NCBI RefSeq assembly: GCF_000195955.2
Contig: NC_000962.3
Coordinates: 780,001-812,000 of the forward strand
DNA: 32,000 nt
Direction: 5' to 3'
Source: Mycobacterium tuberculosis H37Rv
GTDB lineage: Bacteria > Actinomycetota > Actinomycetes > Mycobacteriales > Mycobacteriaceae
Shown: positions 2,485 through 20,792 of the stretch, piece after piece
How positions within the stretch are numbered: position 1 is the stretch's first letter
How the letters are laid out: each line of letters begins with the position of its first letter
The notes under the pieces: generated by a model
What the model was told of the DNA's origin: nothing
Seen by the model: only the letters and a program-made list of their open reading frames with translations
The model's database searches: none
Made by a program: the position numbers and the translations under genes

Positions 2485-4590
2485 GTGGCACAGAAGGACG
2501 TGCTGACCGACCTGAGTAGGGTCCGCAACTTCGGCATCATGGCGCACATCGATGCCGGCAAGACCACAACCACCGAGCGCATCCTGTACTACACCGGTAT
2601 CAACTACAAGATTGGTGAGGTGCACGACGGCGCAGCCACCATGGACTGGATGGAACAGGAACAGGAGCGCGGCATCACCATCACCTCTGCGGCCACGACC
2701 ACGTTCTGGAAAGACAACCAGCTCAATATCATCGACACGCCAGGGCATGTGGATTTCACCGTCGAGGTGGAGCGCAATCTGCGCGTGCTCGACGGCGCGG
2801 TCGCGGTTTTCGACGGCAAAGAGGGTGTCGAACCGCAGTCCGAACAGGTGTGGCGGCAGGCCGACAAATACGATGTCCCCCGAATCTGCTTCGTCAACAA
2901 GATGGACAAGATCGGTGCGGACTTCTACTTCTCGGTTCGCACGATGGGGGAGCGGCTTGGGGCCAACGCCGTGCCCATTCAGCTTCCCGTCGGTGCGGAG
3001 GCCGACTTCGAAGGCGTCGTCGACCTGGTGGAGATGAACGCCAAGGTGTGGCGCGGCGAGACGAAACTCGGCGAAACCTACGACACCGTGGAAATACCGG
3101 CCGACCTGGCCGAGCAGGCTGAGGAGTACCGGACCAAGCTGCTCGAGGTGGTCGCCGAGTCCGACGAGCACCTGTTGGAGAAGTACCTGGGCGGTGAGGA
3201 GCTCACCGTCGACGAGATCAAGGGCGCGATCCGCAAGCTGACAATCGCCAGCGAGATCTACCCGGTGCTGTGCGGCAGCGCGTTCAAGAACAAGGGCGTG
3301 CAGCCGATGCTGGATGCCGTCGTCGACTACCTGCCGTCGCCGCTGGACGTTCCGCCGGCGATCGGGCACGCGCCCGCCAAGGAGGACGAGGAGGTGGTGC
3401 GCAAGGCGACCACCGACGAGCCCTTTGCGGCCCTGGCGTTCAAGATCGCTACTCACCCGTTCTTCGGCAAGCTCACCTACATCCGGGTGTACTCGGGCAC
3501 CGTCGAGTCGGGTAGCCAGGTCATCAATGCCACCAAGGGCAAGAAAGAACGGCTGGGCAAGCTGTTCCAGATGCACTCCAACAAGGAGAACCCGGTCGAT
3601 AGGGCTAGTGCCGGTCACATCTACGCGGTGATCGGTCTCAAGGACACCACCACCGGTGACACCTTGAGCGACCCGAACCAGCAGATCGTGCTGGAGTCGA
3701 TGACCTTCCCCGACCCGGTGATCGAGGTGGCCATCGAGCCGAAGACCAAGAGCGACCAAGAGAAGCTGAGTCTGTCGATCCAGAAGCTCGCCGAAGAGGA
3801 TCCGACCTTCAAGGTGCACCTGGATTCCGAGACCGGCCAGACCGTCATCGGCGGCATGGGCGAGCTGCATCTGGACATCCTGGTGGACCGCATGCGCCGG
3901 GAATTCAAGGTCGAGGCCAACGTCGGCAAGCCTCAGGTTGCCTACAAGGAGACCATCAAGCGGCTCGTGCAGAACGTCGAGTACACCCACAAGAAGCAGA
4001 CGGGTGGCTCGGGCCAGTTCGCCAAGGTCATCATCAACCTCGAGCCGTTCACCGGTGAAGAGGGCGCGACCTACGAGTTCGAGAGCAAAGTCACCGGCGG
4101 GCGTATCCCGCGGGAGTACATCCCGTCGGTGGATGCCGGCGCACAGGACGCCATGCAGTACGGCGTGCTGGCCGGCTATCCGCTGGTGAACCTGAAGGTC
4201 ACGCTGCTCGACGGCGCCTACCACGAGGTTGACTCCTCGGAAATGGCGTTCAAGATCGCGGGCTCGCAGGTGCTCAAAAAGGCTGCCGCACTTGCGCAGC
4301 CGGTGATCCTGGAACCGATCATGGCGGTCGAGGTGACCACACCCGAGGACTACATGGGTGACGTGATCGGCGACCTGAACTCCCGCCGTGGCCAGATCCA
4401 GGCCATGGAGGAGCGGGCTGGTGCGCGCGTTGTTAGGGCGCACGTGCCGCTGTCGGAGATGTTCGGCTACGTCGGTGACCTTCGGTCCAAGACTCAAGGC
4501 CGGGCAAACTACTCCATGGTGTTCGACTCGTACTCCGAAGTGCCGGCGAACGTGTCGAAGGAAATCATCGCGAAGGCGACGGGCGAGTGA
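2485..4590 (+). CDS. fusA1: translation elongation factor G
   Basis: 701 aa with a GTG start. G-domain motifs are [14 protein letters not shown] and NKMD. The full EF-G domain order follows rpsG. Confidence 0.99.
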
Positions 4591-4820: not shown

Positions 4821-6011
<1,191 letters not shown>

Positions 6012-7077: not shown

Positions 7078-7926
<849 letters not shown>

Positions 7927-7939
7927 CGCGCGATCGTGT

Positions 7940-9160
7940 ATGAACGCACACGTGACCAGTCGTGAAGGCGTCAATGAGTTTGACGATGGAATTGTGATCG
8001 TCGGCGGCGGATTGGCAGCTGCGCGCACCGCCGAGCAGTTGCGTCGTGCGGGCTATTCGGGTCGCCTCACGATCGTCAGCGACGAGGTGCATCTGCCGTA
8101 CGACCGTCCGCCGCTATCCAAGGAGGTGCTGCGCAGCGAGGTCGACGATGTGGCCCTCAAACCCCGCGAGTTCTACGACGAAAAGGACATCGCACTTCGG
8201 CTGGGGTCGGCTGCCGTCAGCTTGGACACGGGAGAACAGACGGTAACGCTGGCCGACGGTACGGTGCTCGGCTACGACGAGCTCGTCATCGCGACTGGTT
8301 TGGTGCCCCGGCGTATTCCATCGCTTCCCGACCTTGATGGCATTCGGGTGCTCCGGTCGTTCGACGAGAGCATGGCACTGCGCAAGCATGCATCCGCCGC
8401 ACGGCACGCCGTGGTGGTGGGGGCCGGTTTCATCGGCTGCGAGGTGGCTGCCAGTCTGCGCGGTCTCGGTGTGGATGTGGTGCTGGTTGAGCCGCAGCCG
8501 GCGCCGTTGGCCTCGGTGCTGGGCGAGCAGATCGGCCAGTTGGTGACGCGGCTCCATCGCGATGAGGGCGTTGATGTTCGCACGGGTGTGACAGTGGCCG
8601 AGGTACGTGGCAAGGGGCATGTCGACGCGGTGGTCCTGACCGACGGTACCGAACTGCCGGCTGATCTGGTGGTTGTGGGCATTGGGTCGACCCCGGCGAC
8701 CGAATGGCTAGAGGGTAGCGGCGTCGAGGTCGACAACGGCGTGATCTGTGACAAAGCCGGGCGGACTAGCGCGCCGAATGTGTGGGCGCTCGGTGACGTC
8801 GCCTCCTGGCGAGATCCGATGGGACACCAAGCACGCGTGGAACATTGGAGCAACGTCGCCGACCAGGCCCGAGTCGTGGTGCCCGCGATGCTCGGGACCG
8901 ATGTGCCCACGGGCGTGGTCGTCCCGTATTTCTGGAGTGACCAGTATGACGTCAAAATCCAGTGCCTGGGGGAGCCGCACGCCACCGACGTTGTGCATCT
9001 GGTCGAGGACGACGGGCGCAAGTTCCTTGCCTATTACGAGCGCGATGGCGTGCTGGTTGGCGTGGTCGGTGGCGGGATGGCCGGCAAGGTCATGAAGGTG
9101 CGCGGCAAGATCGCCGCGGGCGCGCCCATCGCCGAAGTGTTAGACCAAACTCAGGCCTAG
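7940..9160 (+). CDS. FAD-dependent ferredoxin reductase (pyridine nucleotide-disulfide oxidoreductase family; Rv0688-like)
   Basis: 406 aa with two Rossmann motifs (IVIVGGGLAAARTA for FAD, AVVVGAGFIGCEVAASL for NAD) and a putidaredoxin-reductase-like C-terminal domain. It starts 13 nt after the SDR gene. Confidence 0.9.
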   Translation: MNAHVTSREGVNEFDDGIVIVGGGLAAARTAEQLRRAGYSGRLTIVSDEVHLPYDRPPLSKEVLRSEVDDVALKPREFYDEKDIALRLGSAAVSLDTGEQTVTLADGTVLGYDELVIATGLVPRRIPSLPDLDGIRVLRSFDESMALRKHASAARHAVVVGAGFIGCEVAASLRGLGVDVVLVEPQPAPLASVLGEQIGQLVTRLHRDEGVDVRTGVTVAEVRGKGHVDAVVLTDGTELPADLVVVGIGSTPATEWLEGSGVEVDNGVICDKAGRTSAPNVWALGDVASWRDPMGHQARVEHWSNVADQARVVVPAMLGTDVPTGVVVPYFWSDQYDVKIQCLGEPHATDVVHLVEDDGRKFLAYYERDGVLVGVVGGGMAGKVMKVRGKIAAGAPIAEVLDQTQA

Positions 9161-10023: not shown

Positions 10024-11073
10024 TCATTGCCAGGTCACCGGTGGGCCGTGTGGATGGCATTCACCCAAGACCCGGGCGTGACCACCCGGCCAACTGCGCA
10101 TACGTACCAGGTACTTGATTTGGGCGCCGGGCCGCTGGTGGGCAGGCTCCAAGGTGAGGTGCACGAACGGGCAGTGGGCATCGGCTTGCGCGGCTAATGC
10201 GTCGATTCCGGCGCGGATCGCTGCGCGTTCGTCGGCGGGCAGGTACTGCCAGGTGATCGAATGCCACAACACGGTGAGTGCATCGTCGGTCAGAGTCATG
10301 CCGGCGACTGCGGCGTGCGCCGCCTGCCGATGGAGGTCCGCGGGAATGTTGCGGGCGACGGCGATGGCGCCCCGCAACCGCTCCAACCGATCGGTCTGGT
10401 CCGGCCAGATGTAGCTCAACGCGTTCAGCTCCCCGTCGGGGCTGGTGACGTCGATGGGCGCGATGTCGTATCCGTGTCGTTCGACGATCCGCACCGTGGC
10501 CGTCGGCGGCAATTCGCCCAGCCAGGCATTGTCGATTCGCACCGGTGAGTCGGCCAGGCCCCATTCGCCGCCGAGATAACGGTAGCGGTACCGATCTGGT
10601 CGCAGGTTCAGCCCTGCACTGGACCCTATCTCGAAAAGCCTTATTGGCAAGTCGAATTGGAGGCAGGCGATGAGAAGTCCACCGATCAACGCCGCCGAGC
10701 GCCCTACCTCGTTGGTCTGCGGTGGCCGATCGAGAGCCGCACGCAGCGACTCCGGCTGGTCGGTCGCGGTGCGGACGATATCGGGCCAGGCTGCCTCCGC
10801 CTGCCAGGTGCCGCCGGTGCTGGGGTACCAGCGGCGCAACACCGGTGCGCGGCCGTCGAGCACCATCCGGTGCAATCCGCCGAGCAGCCGAAGCGGCACC
10901 GCCTGGCCCTCCGGAGCACCCTTCTGGTCGGCCAAGATGGACGCGAAGACGCCGCCGCTTTCGACGTCAGCTGCCACGAGCTCAAGTAGCTCGCGGTACA
11001 TCGGGGAGCCGGAGGAGGTGCACACCCGCCCCTGTGACCGCAGGGTGTGGACCAGGTGTTCGGTGCCCGTCAC
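10024..11073 (-). CDS. conserved protein of unknown function (DUF2332-like, Rv0690c-like) with a methyltransferase-reminiscent [12 protein letters not shown] segment
   Basis: 349-aa ORF whose ATG (11073..11071) overlaps the mftR stop by 4 nt. The family name is from memory. The motif is at 10603-10638. Confidence 0.85.
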
Positions 11074-11666
11074 TGGTTGAGTCGGTCCAGACCGGCGCCG
11101 ACGACGTCAAACGCGGCCCCGAGCGCTTCGGTCAAGGAGACGGATTCGTCGCGCAGCCAATGTTCATAGGCGCTCAGAGCGACCCCCAGCATTGTCCAGG
11201 CGACGGTTTGGGGCATAAAGTCTGTCGTCTTTCCACCCGATCTGCGGGCAACGAATTTGGCGATCACCTCGCGCCAGCCAGCATACATGGTCATCGAATA
11301 GGCCTGCAGTTCAGGAGTTTGCAAGATGACCCGCATGCGCTTGCGGTGTCGGATGGTTTCGGATTCGTCAAAGGTGTTGAAGGCCAACAGCGCTGCGCGC
11401 AACGCGTCCCTCAGCTGAATCCGTGAATCGATATTGTCGAGTAGACCTTGTAGCTGTGCAAGGTGGGTGCTGAAGTCACCCCAGGGGATGGCGTTCTTGG
11501 AGGCGTAGTAGCGAAACAACGTTCTGCGGGCGATGCCGGCCGCCCGGGCGATGTCGTCCACGCTGACATCGGTGAAACCGTGGGCAGCGAACAGTTCGAT
11601 GGCAACATCGCTGATGTGGTGCGGTGTGGTTGAGCGCCGTCGGCCCACCCGCGACTCGTGCGGCAT
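11070..11666 (-). CDS. mftR: TetR-family regulator of the mycofactocin cluster
   Basis: 198 aa from ATG 11666..11664 ([58 protein letters not shown]). It is divergent from mftA. The 370-aa ORF in the track is an upstream read-through that runs antisense to mftA/mftB. Confidence 0.92.
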
Positions 11667-11756
11667 CACATTCGCCCTTCCATTTCGGCACTCGATGCCA
11701 TATTGTGTCCAGATCGACGGATCGCTGTCGAGACCTGCTGGCGAAAGGCAATCCAG
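11667..11756. promoter_or_regulatory. divergent mftR / mftA promoter-operator region
   Basis: 90-bp spacer between divergent start codons. It contains an imperfect dyad TCGACGGATCGCTGTCGA (11714-11731) and an AAAGG RBS about 9 nt before the mftA ATG. No promoter hexamers assigned. Confidence 0.5.
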
Positions 11757-11846
11757 ATGGACTACGAAACCGATACCGACACCGAGCTTGTCACCGAGAC
11801 CCTGGTTGAAGAGGTGTCCATCGACGGAATGTGTGGGGTTTACTGA
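11757..11846 (+). CDS. mftA: mycofactocin precursor peptide
   Basis: 29 codons: [29 protein letters not shown]. The acidic leader plus the invariant C-terminal IDGMCGVY is the signature of MftA. It lies directly upstream of mftB/mftC and is hidden inside the 62-aa ORF 11658..11846 of the track. Confidence 0.93.
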
Positions 11847-11848
11847 CC

Positions 11849-12160
11849 GTGCCGGCGCCCGCGCAGGCTCGCCGGGCTGATTCCAGCGAATTCGATCCCG
11901 ATCGCGGCTGGCGACTACACCCACAGGTGGCGGTCCGGCCGGAGCCTTTTGGCGCGCTGCTCTATCACTTCGGCACCCGTAAGTTGTCATTTCTGAAAAA
12001 TCGCACCATCCTCGCGGTGGTGCAGACGCTGGCGGATTATCCCGATATCCGGTCGGCCTGCCGCGGCGCCGGCGTCGACGACTGTGACCAGGATCCGTAC
12101 CTGCACGCCCTGAGTGTGCTCGCCGGTTCGAACATGCTGGTTCCTCGGCAGACAACATGA
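11849..12160 (+). CDS. mftB: mycofactocin precursor chaperone (PqqD-like RiPP recognition element)
   Basis: [40 protein letters not shown] is typical of MftB. The start is ambiguous: GTG 11849 (103 aa, 2 nt after the mftA stop) or GTG 11831 (109 aa, overlapping mftA). The stop overlaps the mftC ATG (ATGA). Confidence 0.88.
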
Positions 12161-13332
12161 CGAGCCCCGTACCCCGACTCATCGAGCAGTTCGAGCGGGG
12201 GCTCGACGCGCCGATCTGCCTTACCTGGGAGCTGACCTACGCCTGCAACCTAGCTTGCGTGCACTGCCTGTCGTCCTCGGGCAAACGCGATCCCGGCGAG
12301 TTGTCCACCCGCCAATGCAAGGACATCATCGACGAACTGGAACGCATGCAGGTGTTCTACGTGAACATCGGCGGCGGCGAACCAACCGTGCGCCCGGACT
12401 TTTGGGAGCTGGTAGATTACGCCACCGCACACCACGTCGGGGTGAAATTCTCCACCAACGGGGTCCGGATCACCCCCGAGGTGGCCACGCGGCTGGCAGC
12501 CACCGACTACGTCGACGTTCAGATCTCACTCGACGGCGCCACGGCCGAGGTCAACGACGCCATCCGCGGCACCGGGTCGTTCGACATGGCGGTGCGCGCG
12601 CTGCAGAACCTGGCAGCGGCGGGATTTGCCGGCGTCAAGATCTCGGTTGTGATCACCCGGCGCAACGTCGCCCAGCTCGACGAATTCGCCACGCTGGCAA
12701 GCCGTTACGGAGCGACGTTGCGGATAACCAGGTTGCGACCGTCCGGGCGCGGGACTGACGTATGGGCCGACCTGCACCCCACCGCCGACCAGCAGGTGCA
12801 GCTTTACGACTGGCTGGTTTCCAAAGGAGAGCGGGTGCTCACCGGCGATTCCTTCTTCCACCTGGCGCCGCTCGGCCAGTCGGGGGCTCTGGCCGGCTTG
12901 AACATGTGCGGAGCCGGGCGGGTAGTGTGCCTGATCGACCCGGTGGGTGACGTGTATGCGTGCCCATTCGCCATTCATGACCACTTCTTAGCCGGAAACG
13001 TGTTGTCCGACGGCGGATTTCAAAATGTCTGGAAGAACTCGTCGCTGTTTCGCGAGCTCCGGGAGCCCCAGTCCGCAGGCGCCTGTGGCAGCTGCGGACA
13101 CTACGACAGCTGCCGGGGCGGCTGCATGGCGGCGAAATTCTTCACCGGCCTGCCGCTGGACGGGCCGGATCCCGAATGCGTGCAAGGCCATAGCGAGCCG
13201 GCGCTGGCGCGCGAGCGCCACCTACCGCGGCCCCGCGCCGACCACTCCCGCGGTCGGCGCGTCAGCAAACCGGTGCCCCTGACGCTGTCGATGCGGCCAC
13301 CCAAGCGCCCGTGCAATGAAAGTCCGGTGTAG
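12157..13332 (+). CDS. mftC: radical SAM/SPASM maturase (oxidative decarboxylation and C-C cross-link of the MftA C-terminal Val-Tyr)
   Basis: 391 aa. The CxxxCxxC motif is CNLACVHC at 12244-12267. SPASM Cys clusters are [21 protein letters not shown] and [16 protein letters not shown]. Confidence 0.97.
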
Positions 13333-13334
13333 CC

Positions 13335-14525
13335 GTGGCCGAAGCGTGGTTTGAAACGGTAGCCATCGCGCAGCAACGCGCGAAGCGGAGGCTGCCGAAA
13401 TCGGTTTACTCGTCCCTGATTGCGGCCAGTGAAAAGGGAATCACGGTCGCCGACAATGTCGCAGCATTCAGCGAGCTCGGGTTCGCGCCGCACGTCATCG
13501 GGGCGACAGATAAACGTGACTTGTCGACGACCGTTATGGGGCAAGAAGTTTCGTTGCCAGTGATTATTTCGCCGACCGGTGTTCAGGCGGTCGATCCCGG
13601 CGGTGAAGTCGCCGTCGCGCGGGCCGCGGCCGCCCGGGGTACTGTGATGGGATTGTCCTCGTTTGCCAGCAAGCCGATCGAGGAGGTCATTGCCGCCAAC
13701 CCCAAGACCTTCTTCCAGGTCTACTGGCAGGGCGGGCGCGACGCGCTCGCTGAACGCGTCGAACGGGCGCGGCAGGCCGGCGCGGTCGGCCTGGTCGTCA
13801 CCACCGACTGGACGTTCTCGCACGGGCGCGACTGGGGCAGCCCCAAGATCCCCGAAGAGATGAACTTGAAGACCATCCTGCGGCTATCCCCGGAGGCGAT
13901 CACCCGGCCGAGGTGGTTGTGGAAGTTCGCCAAGACGCTACGGCCACCGGACCTACGGGTGCCCAACCAGGGCCGGCGCGGCGAGCCCGGCCCACCGTTC
14001 TTCGCAGCCTACGGCGAATGGATGGCAACACCTCCGCCGACCTGGGAAGATATCGGCTGGCTGCGCGAACTGTGGGGCGGACCGTTCATGCTCAAGGGCG
14101 TCATGCGGGTCGACGATGCCAAAAGAGCTGTGGATGCCGGGGTTTCGGCGATCTCGGTATCCAACCATGGTGGCAACAATTTGGATGGGACGCCAGCATC
14201 GATCCGGGCCCTGCCCGCGGTCTCGGCGGCGGTCGGCGATCAGGTCGAAGTGTTGCTCGACGGCGGCATCCGGCGGGGCAGCGATGTCGTCAAGGCGGTG
14301 GCGCTGGGCGCGCGCGCGGTAATGATTGGTCGCGCTTACCTGTGGGGCTTGGCCGCCAACGGCCAAGCCGGGGTCGAGAATGTACTCGACATCCTGCGCG
14401 GTGGTATCGACTCGGCTCTGATGGGTCTCGGGCATGCCTCTGTCCATGACCTCAGCCCAGCCGACATCCTCGTTCCCACCGGGTTCATCCGCGACCTGGG
14501 TGTGCCCTCCCGACGGGACGTTTAG
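13335..14525 (+). CDS. mftD: FMN-dependent alpha-hydroxy-acid-oxidase-family enzyme of mycofactocin biosynthesis (annotated lldD1 in Mtb)
   Basis: 396 aa with a GTG start 2 nt after the mftC stop. The TIM-barrel FMN motif is VSNHGGNNLDG, followed by LLDGGIRRGSDVVKAVALGA. Confidence 0.95.
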   Translation: MAEAWFETVAIAQQRAKRRLPKSVYSSLIAASEKGITVADNVAAFSELGFAPHVIGATDKRDLSTTVMGQEVSLPVIISPTGVQAVDPGGEVAVARAAAARGTVMGLSSFASKPIEEVIAANPKTFFQVYWQGGRDALAERVERARQAGAVGLVVTTDWTFSHGRDWGSPKIPEEMNLKTILRLSPEAITRPRWLWKFAKTLRPPDLRVPNQGRRGEPGPPFFAAYGEWMATPPPTWEDIGWLRELWGGPFMLKGVMRVDDAKRAVDAGVSAISVSNHGGNNLDGTPASIRALPAVSAAVGDQVEVLLDGGIRRGSDVVKAVALGARAVMIGRAYLWGLAANGQAGVENVLDILRGGIDSALMGLGHASVHDLSPADILVPTGFIRDLGVPSRRDV

Positions 14526-14714
14526 CCGGATGTTGAGCTGGGCCCAAATTGGGGTTGGCCCTCCCATTACCACAGAGATGCTCGCGACGGAATGACGTTT
14601 TTAGAAATTCTGATACGGGCGTGGCAGCCGTGGCGGGCGAGCAGGATGTGTGGCCGGTAAGTCATCACGACGAAAAAAATTTCGGTAGAAGACATAACAA
14701 TTGGTGCACGCCAG

Positions 14715-15470
14715 GTGAATTCGTCCTACCATCGGCGAGTGCCGGTAGTCGGGGAACTCGGGAGTGCGACGTCGAGCCAGCTACCAAGCACGTCGCCGTC
14801 GATAGTGATCCCGCTGGGGTCCACCGAGCAGCACGGTCCCCACCTGCCGTTAGATACCGATACCCGGATCGCGACCGCCGTGGCCCGGACCGTCACCGCG
14901 AGGCTGCACGCCGAGGACCTGCCCATTGCTCAGGAGGAATGGCTGATGGCGCCCGCCATTGCCTACGGCGCCAGCGGCGAACACCAGCGTTTCGCTGGAA
15001 CGATCTCTATCGGCACTGAAGCCCTGACGATGTTGCTCGTGGAGTATGGCAGGTCGGCCGCCTGCTGGGCCCGGCGCCTGGTCTTCGTCAACGGGCACGG
15101 CGGCAATGTCGGCGCTTTGACCCGAGCGGTAGGCCTGCTGCGCGCTGAAGGTCGCGACGCCGGATGGTGCCCGTGCACCTGCCCGGGCGGTGACCCCCAC
15201 GCCGGCCACACCGAAACATCCGTGCTGCTGCATCTTTCGCCGGCCGACGTGCGCACCGAACGGTGGCGCGCGGGTAATCGCGCACCGCTGCCCGTGTTGT
15301 TGCCGTCGATGCGCCGAGGCGGGGTCGCGGCCGTGAGCGAGACAGGAGTGCTCGGGGATCCGACCACGGCGACCGCGGCCGAGGGGCGGCGGATCTTCGC
15401 GGCGATGGTCGACGACTGTGTGCGCCGAGTCGCCCGGTGGATGCCACAGCCCGACGGGATGTTGACATGA
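14715..15470 (+). CDS. mftE: creatininase-family peptidase releasing the modified MftA C-terminus
   Basis: 251 aa with a GTG start. Motifs are VIPLGSTEQHGPHLPLDTD and VNGHGGN. Confidence 0.93.
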   Translation: MNSSYHRRVPVVGELGSATSSQLPSTSPSIVIPLGSTEQHGPHLPLDTDTRIATAVARTVTARLHAEDLPIAQEEWLMAPAIAYGASGEHQRFAGTISIGTEALTMLLVEYGRSAACWARRLVFVNGHGGNVGALTRAVGLLRAEGRDAGWCPCTCPGGDPHAGHTETSVLLHLSPADVRTERWRAGNRAPLPVLLPSMRRGGVAAVSETGVLGDPTTATAAEGRRIFAAMVDDCVRRVARWMPQPDGMLT

Positions 15471-15518
15471 CCGCGCCGGCGACGATGCAGAGCGAAGCGA
15501 TGAGGAGAAGCGGCGCAG
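15471..15518. repeat. single MIRU-family unit filling the mftE-mftF spacer
   Basis: 15476-15507 (CCGGCGACGATGCAGAGCGAAGCGATGAGGAG) is 32/32 identical to 22437-22468 in the rplW-rplB MIRU. The minus-strand translation [12 protein letters not shown] appears at both sites in the ORF track. Confidence 0.85.
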
Positions 15519-16931
15519 ATGACCGCGACCCGACTGCCTGACGGGTTCGCCGTCCAGGTTGACCGTCGCGTGCGAGTGCTTGGCGACGGCTCGGCCCTGC
15601 TCGGTGGCTCACCGACCCGGTTGCTGCGGCTGGCTCCCGCCGCACGAGGCCTGCTCTGTGACGGCCGCCTTAAGGTCCGCGACGAGGTCAGCGCGGAGCT
15701 GGCCCGCATCCTGCTGGACGCCACGGTGGCGCATCCACGGCCGCCGAGTGGGCCGTCACATCGTGACGTCACCGTCGTTATACCAGTACGGAACAACGCA
15801 TCTGGTCTGCGGCGTCTGGTGACCTCGTTACGCGGATTACGCGTCATCGTGGTCGACGACGGTTCGGCGTGCCCGGTCGAGTCGGACGACTTTGTCGGCG
15901 CACATTGCGACATCGAAGTACTCCACCACCCCCACAGCAAGGGGCCGGCCGCGGCTCGCAACACCGGGCTAGCGGCCTGCACCACCGACTTCGTGGCGTT
16001 CCTGGATTCCGACGTGACGCCGCGGCGGGGATGGTTGGAATCCTTACTCGGCCACTTCTGCGATCCCACCGTCGCACTCGTCGCACCTCGCATCGTCAGC
16101 TTGGTGGAAGGCGAGAACCCGGTAGCTCGCTATGAGGCCCTGCACTCGTCGTTGGACCTTGGTCAGCGCGAAGCGCCGGTGTTACCGCATAGCACAGTCT
16201 CTTACGTGCCGAGCGCCGCCATCGTTTGCCGGAGTTCAGCCATCCGCGACGTCGGCGGCTTCGACGAGACCATGCACTCCGGGGAAGATGTCGACTTGTG
16301 CTGGCGGCTCATCGAGGCTGGTGCTCGGCTGCGCTACGAGCCAATTGCGCTGGTCGCCCATGACCATCGGACCCAATTGCGGGACTGGATCGCGCGCAAG
16401 GCGTTTTACGGCGGTTCGGCGGCTCCGCTAGCTGTGCGGCACCCGGACAAGACCGCGCCGCTGGTGATTTCGGGCGGGGCGCTGATGGCGTGGATCCTCA
16501 TGTCGATCGGCACAGGCCTTGGTCGACTGGCGTCGTTGGTGATCGCGGTGCTGACTGGTCGCCGGATCGCCAGGGCCATGCGCTGCGCCGAGACGTCGTT
16601 CTTGGATGTGCTTGCCGTCGCCACCCGCGGGTTGTGGGCGGCCGCGCTGCAGCTGGCGTCGGCCATCTGCCGGCACTATTGGCCACTGGCATTGCTCGCG
16701 GCCATCCTGTCGCGCCGCTGTAGGCGGGTGGTGTTGATTGCGGCGGTAGTGGACGGTGTGGTGGATTGGCTTCGCCGCAGGGAGGGCGCCGACGATGATG
16801 CTGAACCGATTGGGCCGCTGACCTACCTAGTGCTGAAGCGCGTGGACGACTTGGCTTATGGCGCTGGCCTGTGGTACGGGGTGGTGCGCGAACGTAACAT
16901 CGGCGCGCTCAAGCCGCAGATTCGTACCTAG
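15519..16931 (+). CDS. mftF: family-2 glycosyltransferase of mycofactocin biosynthesis with a C-terminal membrane domain
   Basis: 470 aa. The GT2 core is [10 protein letters not shown]...VIVVDDGS...FLDSDV. The C-terminal ~140 aa carry several hydrophobic helices. Confidence 0.93.
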
Positions 16932-16932
16932 T

Positions 16933-18372
16933 GTGACTGCGGCGGTCCGGCATAGCGATGTGCTGGTCGTCGGTGCTGGAAGTGCTGGATCGGTTGTTGC
17001 CGAGCGTCTTTCCATGGACTCGAGCTGTGTGGTGACCGTGCTTGAGGCTGGCCCCGGGCTGGCCGATCCGGGGTTGCTGGCTCAGACGGCCAATGGGTTG
17101 CAACTGCCGATCGGAGCTGGCAGCCCTCTGGTTGAGCGTTATCGGACGCGGCTCACCGATCGACCGGTTCGCCACTTGCCGATCGTGCGGGGTGCGACGG
17201 TCGGCGGTTCCGGCGCAATCAACGGCGGCTATTTCTGCCGCGGACTGCCCAGCGATTTCGACCGTGCCTCGATACCAGGCTGGGCATGGTCTGACGTTCT
17301 GGAGCACTTCCGGGCTATCGAGACAGATCTGGATTTCGAGACGCCTGTGCATGGCCGTAGTGGCCCCATCCCAGTTCGCCGCACACACGAAATGACTGGC
17401 ATCACTGAAAGTTTCATGGCTGCCGCAGAGGACGCAGGGTTCGCTTGGATCGCTGACCTCAACGATGTTGGGCCGGAAATGCCTTCGGGTGTAGGCGCGG
17501 TCCCGCTCAACATCGTTAACGGCGTACGCACCAGCTCGGCGGTCGGCTATCTGATGCCCGCGCTGGGACGGCCGAATCTGACACTGCTGGCCCGGACGCG
17601 GGCGGTGCGGTTGCGCTTTTCCGCCACCACCGCGGTGGGTGTCGACGCGATCGGCCCAGGAGGCCCGGTAAGCCTGAGCGCTGACCGAATCGTATTGTGC
17701 GCCGGAGCGATTCAGTCAGCTCATCTGTTGATGCTCTCGGGCGTCGGCGAGGAGGAGGTGTTGCGATCCGCCGGTGTGAAGGTGCTTATGGCGTTGCCGG
17801 TTGGCATGGGCTGCAGTGACCACCCGGAATGGGTGATGCCGACCAACTGGGCGGTGGCTGTCGATCGGCCGGTGTTAGAGGTGCTGCTGAGCACTCATGA
17901 CGGCATCGAAATAAGGCCGTACACAGGCGGCTTCGTTGCGATGACCGGCGACGGTACAGCCGGGCATCGCGATTGGCCGCATATCGGGGTGGCGCTCATG
18001 CAGCCGCGGGCACGCGGACGCATCACGTTGGTCTCGAGTGATCCCCAGATACCAGTCCGCATCGAGCACCGATACGACAGTGAACCTGCCGATGTCGCGG
18101 CCCTGCGCCAGGGTAGCGCATTGGCCCACGAATTATGCGGTGCGGCAACGCGCATCGGTCCAGCCGTATGGGCGACATCGCAGCATCTGTGTGGTAGTGC
18201 CCCAATGGGCACCGACGATGACCCACGAGCCGTCGTCGACCCGAGGTGTCGGGTCCGCGGCATCGAAAACCTATGGGTGATAGACGGATCTGTCCTTCCG
18301 TCGATCACCAGTCGCGGTCCACACGCAACGATCGTAATGCTGGGCCACCGCGCGGCCGAATTTGTTCAGTGA
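16933..18372 (+). CDS. mftG: GMC-family flavoprotein oxidoreductase (mycofactocin dehydrogenase)
   Basis: 479 aa from the GTG at 16933, 1 nt after the mftF stop. The N-terminal FAD motif is DVLVVGAGSAGSVVAERLS and the GMC C-terminal block is HLCGSAPMG...VIDGSVLP. The 504-aa track ORF would overlap mftF by 74 nt. Confidence 0.92.
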   Translation: MTAAVRHSDVLVVGAGSAGSVVAERLSMDSSCVVTVLEAGPGLADPGLLAQTANGLQLPIGAGSPLVERYRTRLTDRPVRHLPIVRGATVGGSGAINGGYFCRGLPSDFDRASIPGWAWSDVLEHFRAIETDLDFETPVHGRSGPIPVRRTHEMTGITESFMAAAEDAGFAWIADLNDVGPEMPSGVGAVPLNIVNGVRTSSAVGYLMPALGRPNLTLLARTRAVRLRFSATTAVGVDAIGPGGPVSLSADRIVLCAGAIQSAHLLMLSGVGEEEVLRSAGVKVLMALPVGMGCSDHPEWVMPTNWAVAVDRPVLEVLLSTHDGIEIRPYTGGFVAMTGDGTAGHRDWPHIGVALMQPRARGRITLVSSDPQIPVRIEHRYDSEPADVAALRQGSALAHELCGAATRIGPAVWATSQHLCGSAPMGTDDDPRAVVDPRCRVRGIENLWVIDGSVLPSITSRGPHATIVMLGHRAAEFVQ

Positions 18373-18832
18373 CTTTCGTCGAGTGGGGCGACCACAGCGG
18401 TCGCTGCCGAATGTGCATTTCGGTCAGGCATTGAGCAGGGGACCGAATAGCGTAGCTCCGCATCGGACTGCAGTCGTCAGGTCGACGATGATGGCGCTGA
18501 CATCGGAGGTGGGCCGCGGCCCAGGCTTCGCGGTTTGGCGGCCTGCGAAGAAGTGGCTCTTCTGACACTTCCGTGGGTGGACTTCTGGTTTGAGTAGGCG
18601 CACGTCGTTGTCGCTTAGGGTTTCTGGCTTGTCAAAGGACAGGACCAGCGCAGATCACTGTAGTCTTAGCTGATGCTGCCGCCCGGATTGCCGACGTCGT
18701 GGCCCAGCGGTGCCCCAACGCGGTCCGCCGCGTCGATCCTTTCCACGTGGTGGCCTGGGCCACCGAGGCTCTAGAGGCTGAACGGCGCCGGGCCTGAAAC
18801 GACGCGCGAGCGCCCGCCCGGACCCCGAGTCA

Positions 18833-19444
18833 TTGGGTCGCAGGGGTAACCGAAGGGTGCACGTTGACCGCGTGAGGCTAACCGGCACCGAGCGTGAACT
18901 GAGGGCGGAGAATCAGAGCCCCCCGATTTTCCGCCCGCAGAACACGTTGGGCGACGGCGCCAACGGGCTGCCACTGGCCGTGTGCACCACGACGGCTCAC
19001 ACGTGCCACACTTCCCATACTCACCCATCGCGGTGGACCCCAAACCCAGTGCCGGCCACCAAGGGCGTCCCCGCTGGATTGGTGCAAGCAACCTTCATCA
19101 TCGAAAACCTTGACCCCGGCAACAACGACACGCCGACCCCCCCTACACCCAAACTGCGATTAGCCCGAAAACCTGGGCACCATAGGCGATCTGAATACGA
19201 TGCGGATTCGGTGCTGCGGAGAAAGGATACATCGCGCCGATGCGTCCAGGCGGATGACGTCCGATGCGTGCAGCTGGTCCAGGATCCGCGGCGCGGACGT
19301 GTCGAACTCGGTGGTTACCGCGCCGAGCTTACTGTTGGCCGACGGGCGGCGGTGAATTGCCAACGCCCGCAATATGGTGCGGATGGATGGCCCGTTCGGT
19401 TGGGTTGCGGGGTAGGCGGCGCCGCGCGAGGCGATCAGCGCTGA
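18833..19444 (+). CDS. questionable 203-codon ORF (Rv0698-type hypothetical)
   Basis: The N-terminal part (about 18900-19150) has visibly G/C-rich third positions; by my hand count roughly three quarters of codons end in G/C. The 3' half runs antisense to a coding-like minus-strand ORF. No recognisable domain and no clear RBS. Confidence 0.2.
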   Translation: MGRRGNRRVHVDRVRLTGTERELRAENQSPPIFRPQNTLGDGANGLPLAVCTTTAHTCHTSHTHPSRWTPNPVPATKGVPAGLVQATFIIENLDPGNNDTPTPPTPKLRLARKPGHHRRSEYDADSVLRRKDTSRRCVQADDVRCVQLVQDPRRGRVELGGYRAELTVGRRAAVNCQRPQYGADGWPVRLGCGVGGAARGDQR

Positions 19445-20053
19445 GGTCGGGAATTCACCTCCGGTCGCGGGAGTACAGCGGTCGGCTGGGGTGCCGCCGG
19501 TGTCTGTCGGGTAGAGGCGGCAGGACACGCTCGCCGTCAAAACGGCTTCGGCAAACGGGTCTTCGCCGTCGACAGGCAGGGTTGGTGATCCCGGCCTCGG
19601 CGGCGACGGTCTGGTCATTGATTGTGCGATGGGTGATCGTCGTGTCGATCTGCTCGCGGCGAAGGACTCGGAGATCCGGCGCTCGATGGGGGCAGTACCG
19701 GTCGGCGCGGGAAGCTCGCAGGTGGCGACGAGTTGGGCGAGTGATCGTTGCATCCGCTGTCGGGCGGCGATTCTGTCGGCCGACTGTGCCAACTTGGCTA
19801 GGGCCAATTCGCGGGGCGGTCTGGCAGTCGGCGGGTCCGCTGTCAGCTAGCTGCAGCAGCTCCTCGATCTCGTCGAGGCTGAATCCATGGGACTACGCGC
19901 GTCTGACGGACGAGACCACCGATACCGCATCGGCGCGATACCGCGATAGCCCTGAGAACGACCGGGCCGGCGCGGCTAGCAGGTCCTCCGCTCGTAATAG
20001 CGCAGCGTCTGGCCGTTGATCCCAGCCCGCGCGGCAACCTGGCTACTCCGCAT
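19160..20053 (-). pseudogene. MerR-family regulator pseudogene followed by further decayed coding sequence
   Basis: From ATG 20053 the sequence reads MRSSQVAARAGINGQTLRYYERR. The rest of the MerR fold appears only after a frame switch (~19985), an in-frame TAG (19893-19895) and a second frame switch in a G-run (19813-19816). Those segments read LLAAPARSFSGLSRYRADAVSVVSSVRRA*SHGFSLDEIEELLQLADSGPADCQTA, then RELALAKLAQSADRIAARQRMQRSLAQLVATCE. Confidence 0.6.
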
Positions 20054-20073
20054 TCCGCCATTCCGAACCCTGT

Positions 20074-20088
20074 ACTCGACTGTCGAGT
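20074..20088. promoter_or_regulatory. perfect dyad ACTCGAC-T-GTCGAGT overlapping a TTGACT hexamer just upstream of the MerR-like start (candidate MerR operator)
   Basis: 7-bp arms with a 1-nt centre, 21 nt upstream of the MerR-like ATG. On the minus strand it reads CTTGACTCGACAGTCGAGTACA, resembling MerR-type operator/-35 arrangements. Confidence 0.35.
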
Positions 20089-20486
20089 CAAGGGTGTGTG
20101 TTGTCAGTGCCGGGTCAGGTGCCGATAGCAACCGGCCGCCCGCCGCTGCACCCGAGCCAGCGGCGATTTGGCCGAAGCGGTGATCTGGGGCATACTGTTC
20201 AGGTTGCCCTGCGCCAGGTTTGCGTCTGGCCGGGCATACGACCAGCGCCCACACGGGCGCGTCCGGTCCCACCCTTGAAGCGCGACGATTTCGGCCTTGA
20301 AATTGATCGCGACAAGGCTGTGTGCGGGCGACACGCCCGAGCGCGGGGCCGGTGGACCTACGACAGGTAAACAGCGGCGCAGTATTCGGCGCAACGCTAG
20401 ATCGGTCCAGAAGGACCGGGTCGATCGGCGCGCCGGGGAGCACCGGACCCGGATACGGGCTCGAGTGGGAGTGAGGTAGGAGAAGC

Positions 20487-20792
20487 GTGGCGGGACAGAA
20501 GATCCGCATCAGGCTGAAGGCCTACGACCATGAGGCCATTGACGCTTCGGCGCGCAAGATCGTCGAAACCGTCGTCCGCACCGGTGCCAGCGTCGTAGGG
20601 CCGGTGCCGCTACCGACTGAGAAGAACGTGTATTGCGTCATCCGCTCACCGCATAAGTACAAGGACTCGCGGGAGCACTTCGAGATGCGCACACACAAGC
20701 GGTTGATCGACATCATCGATCCCACGCCGAAGACCGTTGACGCGCTCATGCGCATCGACCTTCCGGCCAGCGTCGACGTCAACATCCAGTAG
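20487..20792 (+). CDS. rpsJ: 30S ribosomal protein S10
   Basis: 101 aa with a GTG start after TAGGAGAAG. Canonical S10: [29 protein letters not shown]. Confidence 0.99.

Follow-up and report, generated by a model that had tools for sequence, protein, structure and literature searches.

The experimental model for the mycofactocin (MFT) system is Mycolicibacterium smegmatis, which carries the regulator gene mftR together with the set mftABCDEFG (MSMEG_1420-1426, with mftG as MSMEG_1428). Biosynthesis of pyrroloquinoline quinone (PQQ), which involves PqqA, PqqD and PqqE, shares the same logic, in that a redox cofactor is made from a ribosomal peptide by means of an RRE chaperone and a radical-SAM/SPASM enzyme, but the precursor, the chemistry and the downstream enzymes all differ. 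Variant mycofactocin systems, with MftA of the NF040489 type and MftG of the TIGR04542 and NF038210 types, form related families. The sequence examined here, hereafter the window, is a stretch of 32,000 nucleotides (nt) of Mycobacterium tuberculosis H37Rv (contig NC_000962.3, positions 780,001 to 812,000). Window positions 11070-18372 are the canonical mycofactocin locus, Rv0691c-Rv0697 (H37Rv 791070-798372), an identification that is close to certain. The cluster is already known in M. tuberculosis itself, in the reference strain, and is not a discovery. The only element beyond common knowledge is a conserved promoter inside the cluster, from which mftE is transcribed without a leader, together with the re-annotation that results from it; the experimental basis of this promoter, a transcription start site (TSS), is already public in supplementary tables.

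Relative to M. smegmatis, the locus contains the same mftR and mftABCDEFG set, assigned to the same NCBIfam families. The operator palindrome and its distance from mftA are likewise shared, and the MftR proteins of the two species are 69% identical (PMC8728441). M. tuberculosis differs from M. smegmatis in lacking the unlinked methyltransferase gene mftM and the alcohol dehydrogenase gene mdo (PMC9679996), and because mftM is absent only unmethylated mycofactocins are expected. Mycofactocins have been detected in M. tuberculosis by liquid chromatography-mass spectrometry (LC-MS), as unmethylated congeners only (PMC9679996). Methyl-mycofactocinones, which the original prediction had named among the targets for LC-MS, are thus expected to be negative in this species, in which mycofactocin LC-MS has in any case been done already.

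For comparison with closer relatives, 80 Mycobacterium loci were sampled, among them those of M. simulans, M. szulgai, M. interjectum and M. gastri; the M. tuberculosis record is outside this sample, whose members show 75-83% identity, 83% being the best match. The order of mftR and mftABCDEFG is kept in these loci. Where contigs reach, slow-growing mycobacteria retain the whole arrangement of a short-chain dehydrogenase/reductase (SDR) gene, a ferredoxin-reductase-like gene, a DUF2332 gene, mftR, mftABCDEFG and the S10 ribosomal operon, with protein identities of 75-92%; conservation extends to the operator and to the promoter block of mftE. M. tuberculosis departs from these relatives in an eight-residue insertion in MftE and in a downstream Rv0698-like open reading frame (ORF), both described below.

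Identity and gene content of the locus

Mycofactocin systems were recognised by the criteria of Haft (2011) and the equivalog cut-offs of NCBIfam models TIGR03962-TIGR03970. All eight products pass these cut-offs at near full length, including the precursor peptide and the radical-SAM/SPASM protein, on which the original prediction had staked its claim, and no frameshift or internal stop was found in any of the eight genes. In an exact-sequence look-up, all eight Mft proteins were 100% identical to M. tuberculosis complex (MTBC) entries, on at least 1000 contigs; the matching entries include MFTB_MYCTU and MFTF_MYCTU, and the upstream SDR is identical to Rv0687. Furthermore, five published H37Rv coordinates fit features of the window with one constant offset, 780000. 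These are the TSS 791696R, at -30 of Rv0691c (mftR start, 11666); 791713F, at -118 of Rv0692 (open frame from 11831); 791272R, at -199 of Rv0690c (start, 11073); 794739F, at +25 in Rv0695 (annotated mftE start, 14715); and the homopolymer tract 794672-794679 in the Rv0694-Rv0695 spacer (A7 run, 14673-14679). Since the eight equivalog models are passed, the protein matches are exact and a single offset accounts for the coordinates, the locus is identified as the known system. The original prediction, which described a complete mycofactocin system of eight intact genes that is already described and not novel, gave its outer coordinates exactly and holds on each of these counts.

Nothing substantive weighs against this identification, and the points on the other side are minor. 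Identity is established by exact matches of the proteins and by cross-checked coordinates rather than by DNA alignment. MftB has no match in Pfam, PqqD included, and none among PDB sequences, and its single-sequence AlphaFold2 model, with strands followed by three helices, is of low confidence (pLDDT 54.9). The top Foldseek matches of this low-confidence model are lasso-peptide RRE (leader-peptide-binding) proteins, all sub-threshold (E = 0.085 or weaker). Of the PqqD-like chaperone proposed originally, the assignment to the MftB family is sound (TIGR03967), while likeness to PqqD is not shown by sequence.

The cluster layout, taken from the ORF listing and from direct reading of 11500-12300, places mftR on the minus strand and mftA-B-C-D-E-F-G on the plus strand. 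The TetR-family repressor gene mftR (Rv0691c; 11070-11666; 198 aa) encodes a product scoring 295.3 bits against TIGR03968 (cut-off 224.9; profile positions 2-189 of 190), with matches to both the Pfam TetR_N and MftR C-terminal domains, and the mapped TSS, 30 nt upstream of the start codon, confirms where the gene begins. The precursor peptide ending IDGMCGVY is encoded by mftA (Rv0691A; 11758-11847; 29 aa) and passes both TIGR03969 (53.3 bits; cut-off 25) and PF23709 (58.9; cut-off 27), the latter covering 1-29 of 29, whereas the variant model NF040489 scores only 18.2 (cut-off 30). The peptide chaperone (RRE) gene mftB (Rv0692) occupies 11849-12160, with an open frame and an annotated alternative start at 11831; its product scores 104.7 bits against TIGR03967 (cut-off 33; profile positions 2-85 of 85). 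Forms of 109 and 103 aa both occur among MTBC annotations, and a start at 791849 was proposed by Cortes 2013 (file 3). The mftB stop and the mftC start overlap as ATGA.

The radical-SAM/SPASM maturase gene mftC (Rv0693, formerly pqqE; 12157-13332; 391 aa) scores 682.1 bits against TIGR03962 (cut-off 265; profile positions 1-338 of 339). It contains the CX3CX2C motif as CNLACVHC at residues 30-37 (12244-12267) and the SPASM motif CX2CX5CX3C at residue 310. The next gene, mftD (Rv0694, formerly lldD1; 13335-14525; 396 aa), encodes the flavin mononucleotide (FMN)-dependent pre-mycofactocin synthase (TIGR03966, 710.5 bits; cut-off 470.85), with SNHGG at residue 276; two further TSSs have been mapped within it (Cortes 2013), one in sense at 793652 (window 13652; starvation data set) and one in antisense at 794160 (window 14160). 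The creatininase-family peptidase gene mftE (Rv0695) is annotated at 14715-15470 (251 aa) and more likely spans 14739-15470 (243 aa). MftE scores 358.9 bits against TIGR03964 (cut-off 172) and carries GSTEQHG at residue 35. An eight-residue insertion in the M. tuberculosis protein (around 14910-14933; ...AEDLPIAQEE...), missing from most relatives, explains why 236 residues of MftE align over 228 profile positions. In M. tuberculosis a gap of 48 nt (15471-15518) separates mftE from mftF; in most relatives the end of mftE abuts or overlaps the mftF start.

The glycosyltransferase family 2 (GT2) gene mftF (Rv0696; 15519-16931; 470 aa) scores 600.4 bits against TIGR03965 (cut-off 280; profile positions 1-466 of 467), with DSD at residue 163 and a hydrophobic C-terminal part (hydrophobic windows 312-345). 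Beginning 2 nt past the mftF stop, mftG (Rv0697; 16933-18372; 479 aa; open frame from 16858) encodes the GMC flavoprotein mycofactocin dehydrogenase, which scores 762 bits against TIGR03970 (cut-off 387.45; profile positions 1-487 of 487) and has GAGSAG at residue 14 and an intact HLCGSAPMG; it is of the Rv0697 type, unlike the TIGR04542 and NF038210 types. The family assignments made originally were borne out for the divergent TetR regulator, the precursor peptide with its terminal residues, the FMN oxidase-family enzyme, the creatininase-family peptidase, the GT2 enzyme with a membrane tail and the GMC flavoprotein, and the radical-SAM motif lies exactly where it had been placed. A search of PDB sequences found no Mft enzyme; closest to MftC were PqqE and SkfB, closest to MftD were hydroxy-acid oxidases, and closest to MftE were creatininases.

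The biosynthetic scheme for these products is transferred by orthology from established work, done mostly with enzymes of M. smegmatis and M. ulcerans, and from the reviews contained in PMC9679996 and PMC11778925. MftB would bind MftA and present it to MftC, which would carry out the oxidative decarboxylation of the C-terminal Tyr and its cross-linking to Val. MftE would then cleave off the modified Val-Tyr core, MftD would convert this core to pre-mycofactocin by FMN-dependent oxidative deamination, and MftF would attach a beta-1,4-glucan chain. The cofactor is predicted to serve nicotinoprotein dehydrogenases, for example the neighbouring Rv0687 SDR, and once reduced would be re-oxidised by MftG, with electrons passing toward the respiratory chain; the function of MftG has been shown (PMC11778925).

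The older names of Rv0693 and Rv0694 reflect a reading of the cluster as one for a PQQ-type cofactor or an L-lactate dehydrogenase. MftC is a distant homologue of PqqE (TIGR02109, 108.9 bits; PDB 6c8v, E = 4e-15) and MftD resembles LldD and lactate oxidases, but the former score falls well below the TIGR02109 cut-off of 381.35 and the LldD model reaches 226.6 against a cut-off of 550 on MftD, whereas the same two proteins reach 682 and 710 bits on their mycofactocin equivalogs. By family models the precursor is MftA, not PqqA, and no pqqA, pqqB or pqqC is present among the eight cluster ORFs, all of which are Mft-assigned, although no search was aimed at these three genes. The legacy reading consequently retains virtually no probability. 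Scarcely more credible is the view that the locus survives in this obligate pathogen only as a relic, decaying and without function. The loss of mdo and mftM from M. tuberculosis (PMC9679996) would fit such decay, as would the weak expression of mftG (about 1.2 units, where mftD reaches about 20; Cortes files 2 and 6). However, all mft genes are full length with intact catalytic motifs, identical Mft sequences recur on more than 1000 contigs of the MTBC, the cofactor has been detected in this species (PMC9679996), and mft mutants with growth and infection phenotypes have been reported (PMC11778925). The locus is accordingly treated below as a canonical, intact mycofactocin cluster.

The MftR operator and the divergent mftR and mftA promoters

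Footprinting in M. smegmatis delimited the MftR operator, for which the palindrome T-N2-GGCA-N5-TGCC-N2-A was defined, and the M. tuberculosis operator (Omft) was placed at -78 to -52 of mftA (PMC8728441). A single match to this pattern occurs in the window, where 0.03 would be expected by chance, and it lies at the published position (11684-11702; equivalent of the 27-bp footprint, 11680-11706). Of the 80 related loci, 76 contain the pattern, 75 of them in a single copy and one (L070) in two. In the loci checked (e.g. L001 and L002) the operator is found approximately 18-20 nt past the mftR start, as in the window.

Two promoters lie back to back at this site. The mftR promoter (11696-11707, minus strand), found by a promoter scan, has a -10 hexamer CACAAT at 11707-11702 and a TSS at 11696, which corresponds to 791696R in both Shell 2015 and Cortes 2013. 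The mftA promoter (11701-11713, plus strand) has a -10 hexamer TATTGT at 11701-11706 and a TSS at 11713, giving a 45-nt leader. In the published TSS map this site, 791713F, is strong (coverage 6035), and starvation increases its signal 4.7-fold (Cortes 2013, file 5). The operator overlaps both promoters and lies between their TSSs, and we therefore infer that MftR blocks both, repressing mftA and also its own gene. MftR bound at 11684-11702 would be released by long-chain acyl-CoAs, a release that has been shown in M. smegmatis.

The mftD-mftE spacer and the start of mftE

A second origin of transcription lies within the cluster, and mftA-G is not one operon but at least two transcription units. 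Shell et al. 2015 mapped a TSS at 794739(+), with G as first base, and flagged it as one that 'shortens annotated ORF'; Cortes et al. 2013 found the same TSS independently, in exponential and in starved cultures. This position is 14739 of the window, the G of the GTG codon for residue 9 of annotated MftE. The corresponding promoter (14695-14738, plus strand) consists of a conserved block, described below as block B, and a -10 hexamer TACCAT at 14727-14732. Across 79 distinct Mycobacterium loci, the sample used for all counts of the mftE start and promoter, this hexamer (-12 to -7) is invariant, and the 6-nt discriminator that separates it from the TSS is variable. The codon at 14739 is GTG in 78 of these loci and ATG in the other, while that at 14715 is GTG in 72 and a non-start codon, GTA or GTT, in 7. 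Reading of the sequence revealed no Shine-Dalgarno motif before 14715.

Because the TSS falls on the G of its start codon, the -10 hexamer is invariant and a start codon is always kept at this position, mftE is probably leaderless and begins with GTG at 14739, eight codons later than annotated, encoding a protein of 243 aa. Initiation at 14739 would give the N-terminus (M/V)PVVGELGSATSSQ (PVVGELG...) and initiation at 14715 would give MNSSYHRR. The codons annotated for the latter (14715-14738) hold the invariant TACCAT, and rare codons such as AAT and CAT are conserved among them. The match to TIGR03964 starts only at residue 15 of the 251-aa form, and MNSSYHRR is for that reason most simply explained as promoter DNA annotated as coding. 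The 243-aa form is already present in a few NCBI annotations. Two points weigh against the later start: 14715 prevails among annotations, being used on more than 1000 contigs and 14739 on only 18, and read-through from the mftA promoter could allow translation from 14715.

The spacer between mftD and mftE, in which this promoter lies, measures 189 nt and is of lower G+C content. It is almost always present in the 80 relatives, with a median length of 164 nt, and shows DNA-level conservation over its 3' 100 nt. Block A (14611-14642; TGrTAC-N3-CGTGGyA-N2-CGTGrCGrACGAGC) lies at -97 to -128 from the mftE TSS, holds the direct repeat CGTGGC-N3-CGTGGC (14620-14635) and is kept across approximately 76 Mycobacterium loci; it is presumed to be a binding site for a regulator. 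Block B (14698-14722; CAATTGGTGCACGCCAGGTGAATTC) contains GGTGNA repeats spaced 10 bp apart (GGTGNA-N4-GGTGNA, 14703-14718) and is 95-99% conserved, running unbroken into the first annotated mftE codons. Block A occurs once in the window, and no further copies of either block were found elsewhere in it, for example upstream of the SDR gene. Between the two blocks, an A7 homopolymer tract (14673-14679), conserved in relatives, lies 60-66 nt upstream of the mftE TSS. This tract (794672-794679, Rv0694-Rv0695) shows indels in eight MTBC clinical isolates, with a weak association with moxifloxacin (PMC10334774); such indels would alter the spacing between blocks A and B.

Other explanations for the conserved spacer were considered. 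An RNA element was rejected in favour of a promoter or operator acting at the DNA level. Nothing in the spacer matched Rfam at the gathering threshold, and at E values up to 10 only two sub-gathering matches of chance level appeared, both inside mftD. The consensus fold of the spacer is weak (-3.1 kcal/mol) with negligible covariation, and the single-sequence z-score is 0.18, so that no conserved fold is apparent. A second MftR operator was not present in the spacer by pattern search, and no intrinsic terminator was found 3' of mftD. Blocks A and B gave no convincing match to the known M. tuberculosis regulator motifs of CRP, PhoP, KstR or DosR, and a paper on CRP chromatin immunoprecipitation (PMC4117774) does not mention the mft genes.

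Published expression data bear on how the second transcription unit may be regulated. Depletion of WhiB1 raises mftE 5.2-fold and mftF 4.7-fold, the operon being given as 'mftEF' (PMC5741622). Overexpression of MftR lowers mftA, mftC and mftD 15- to 80-fold and mftE and mftF less than 10-fold (PMC8728441). In M. marinum a primary TSS was assigned to the mftE orthologue and belongs to the group that hypoxia represses most strongly (PMC8022548). No paper connecting mycofactocin with the mftE promoter was found in the literature searched.

It could be held instead that mftA-G is a single MftR-controlled transcript, that the 5' end at 14739 is minor or spurious and that MftE is made from GTG 14715 as a 251-aa protein. 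The prevailing annotation of 14715 and the GTG found there in most of the 79 loci would agree with this, as would the reduction of mftE and mftF on MftR overexpression, modest as it is, which implies that some read-through exists. Against it stand the detection of the TSS in two independent data sets, obtained by triphosphate enrichment or 5' mapping, and at the M. marinum orthologue, and the invariance of a TANNNT hexamer at -12 to -7 next to a discriminator that varies. Moreover, the seven loci with GTA or GTT at 14715 all keep a start codon at 14739, no Shine-Dalgarno motif precedes the former, and the 189-nt spacer is conserved as DNA without an RNA fold. A single transcript thus appears unlikely. 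The reading preferred here is that a second promoter in the mftD-mftE spacer starts a leaderless transcript at 14739 that would comprise mftE and mftF and possibly mftG. Taken as a whole, that is with a conserved internal promoter, a leaderless mRNA, uncoupling of mftE and mftF (possibly mftG) from control by MftR and acyl-CoA, binding of a regulator to blocks A and B, and a response to WhiB1 level and to hypoxia, this picture is favoured by a modest balance of the evidence, its regulatory logic being pieced together from the conserved blocks and the expression data above.

The practical value of these results lies in annotation and regulation, as every gene of the cluster is named, modelled and, in orthologues, biochemically characterised. 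A leaderless mftE that is eight codons shorter would call for revised expression constructs and revised models of the operon for mycofactocin in M. tuberculosis. If mftEF(G) is independently regulated, the level of mature, glycosylated, recyclable cofactor would be set apart from the supply of precursor, and such separate control would bear on the roles reported for mycofactocin in hypoxia adaptation and drug-response phenotypes.

Genes flanking the cluster

The extent given in the original prediction, 11070-18372, is correct for the mft genes, but the functional neighbourhood reaches further upstream, to the SDR gene at 7099-7926 (plus strand). This gene encodes a mycofactocin-dependent oxidoreductase of the Rv0687 family, scoring 385.6 bits against NF009467 (cut-off 269) and 360.2 bits against TIGR03971 (cut-off 300), and is a predicted client nicotinoprotein; its synteny 5' of mft extends to most of the 80 relatives. 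Directly 3' of it, a ferredoxin-NAD(+) reductase-like flavoprotein (Rv0688) is encoded at 7940-9160 (plus strand), and the two genes are retained as a pair upstream of mft in most of the relatives. Further upstream lie fusA (2485-4590) and tuf (4821-6011); these, like rpsJ downstream, agree with the H37Rv coordinates assigned to the locus.

Downstream of the cluster, rpsJ begins at 20487. The interval between mftG and rpsJ (18373-20486) measures 2115 nt here, compared with 378 to 6836 nt in 67 relatives. It contains two ORFs, the Rv0698-like one at 18833-19444 and another at 19264-20019, for which tblastn against the 80 loci gave no match.

Adjacent to mftR, on the same strand, is a DUF2332 gene (Rv0690c; 10024-11073), whose start overlaps the mftR stop by 4 nt and which is syntenic with mftR in nearly all relatives. 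It has its own strong TSS within mftR, at 11272 (791272R; coverage 978). In protein clusters built at 90% identity, neighbouring products of the locus are merged, namely MftR with DUF2332, MftC with MftD, and MftF with MftG, presumably as a result of fused gene calls.

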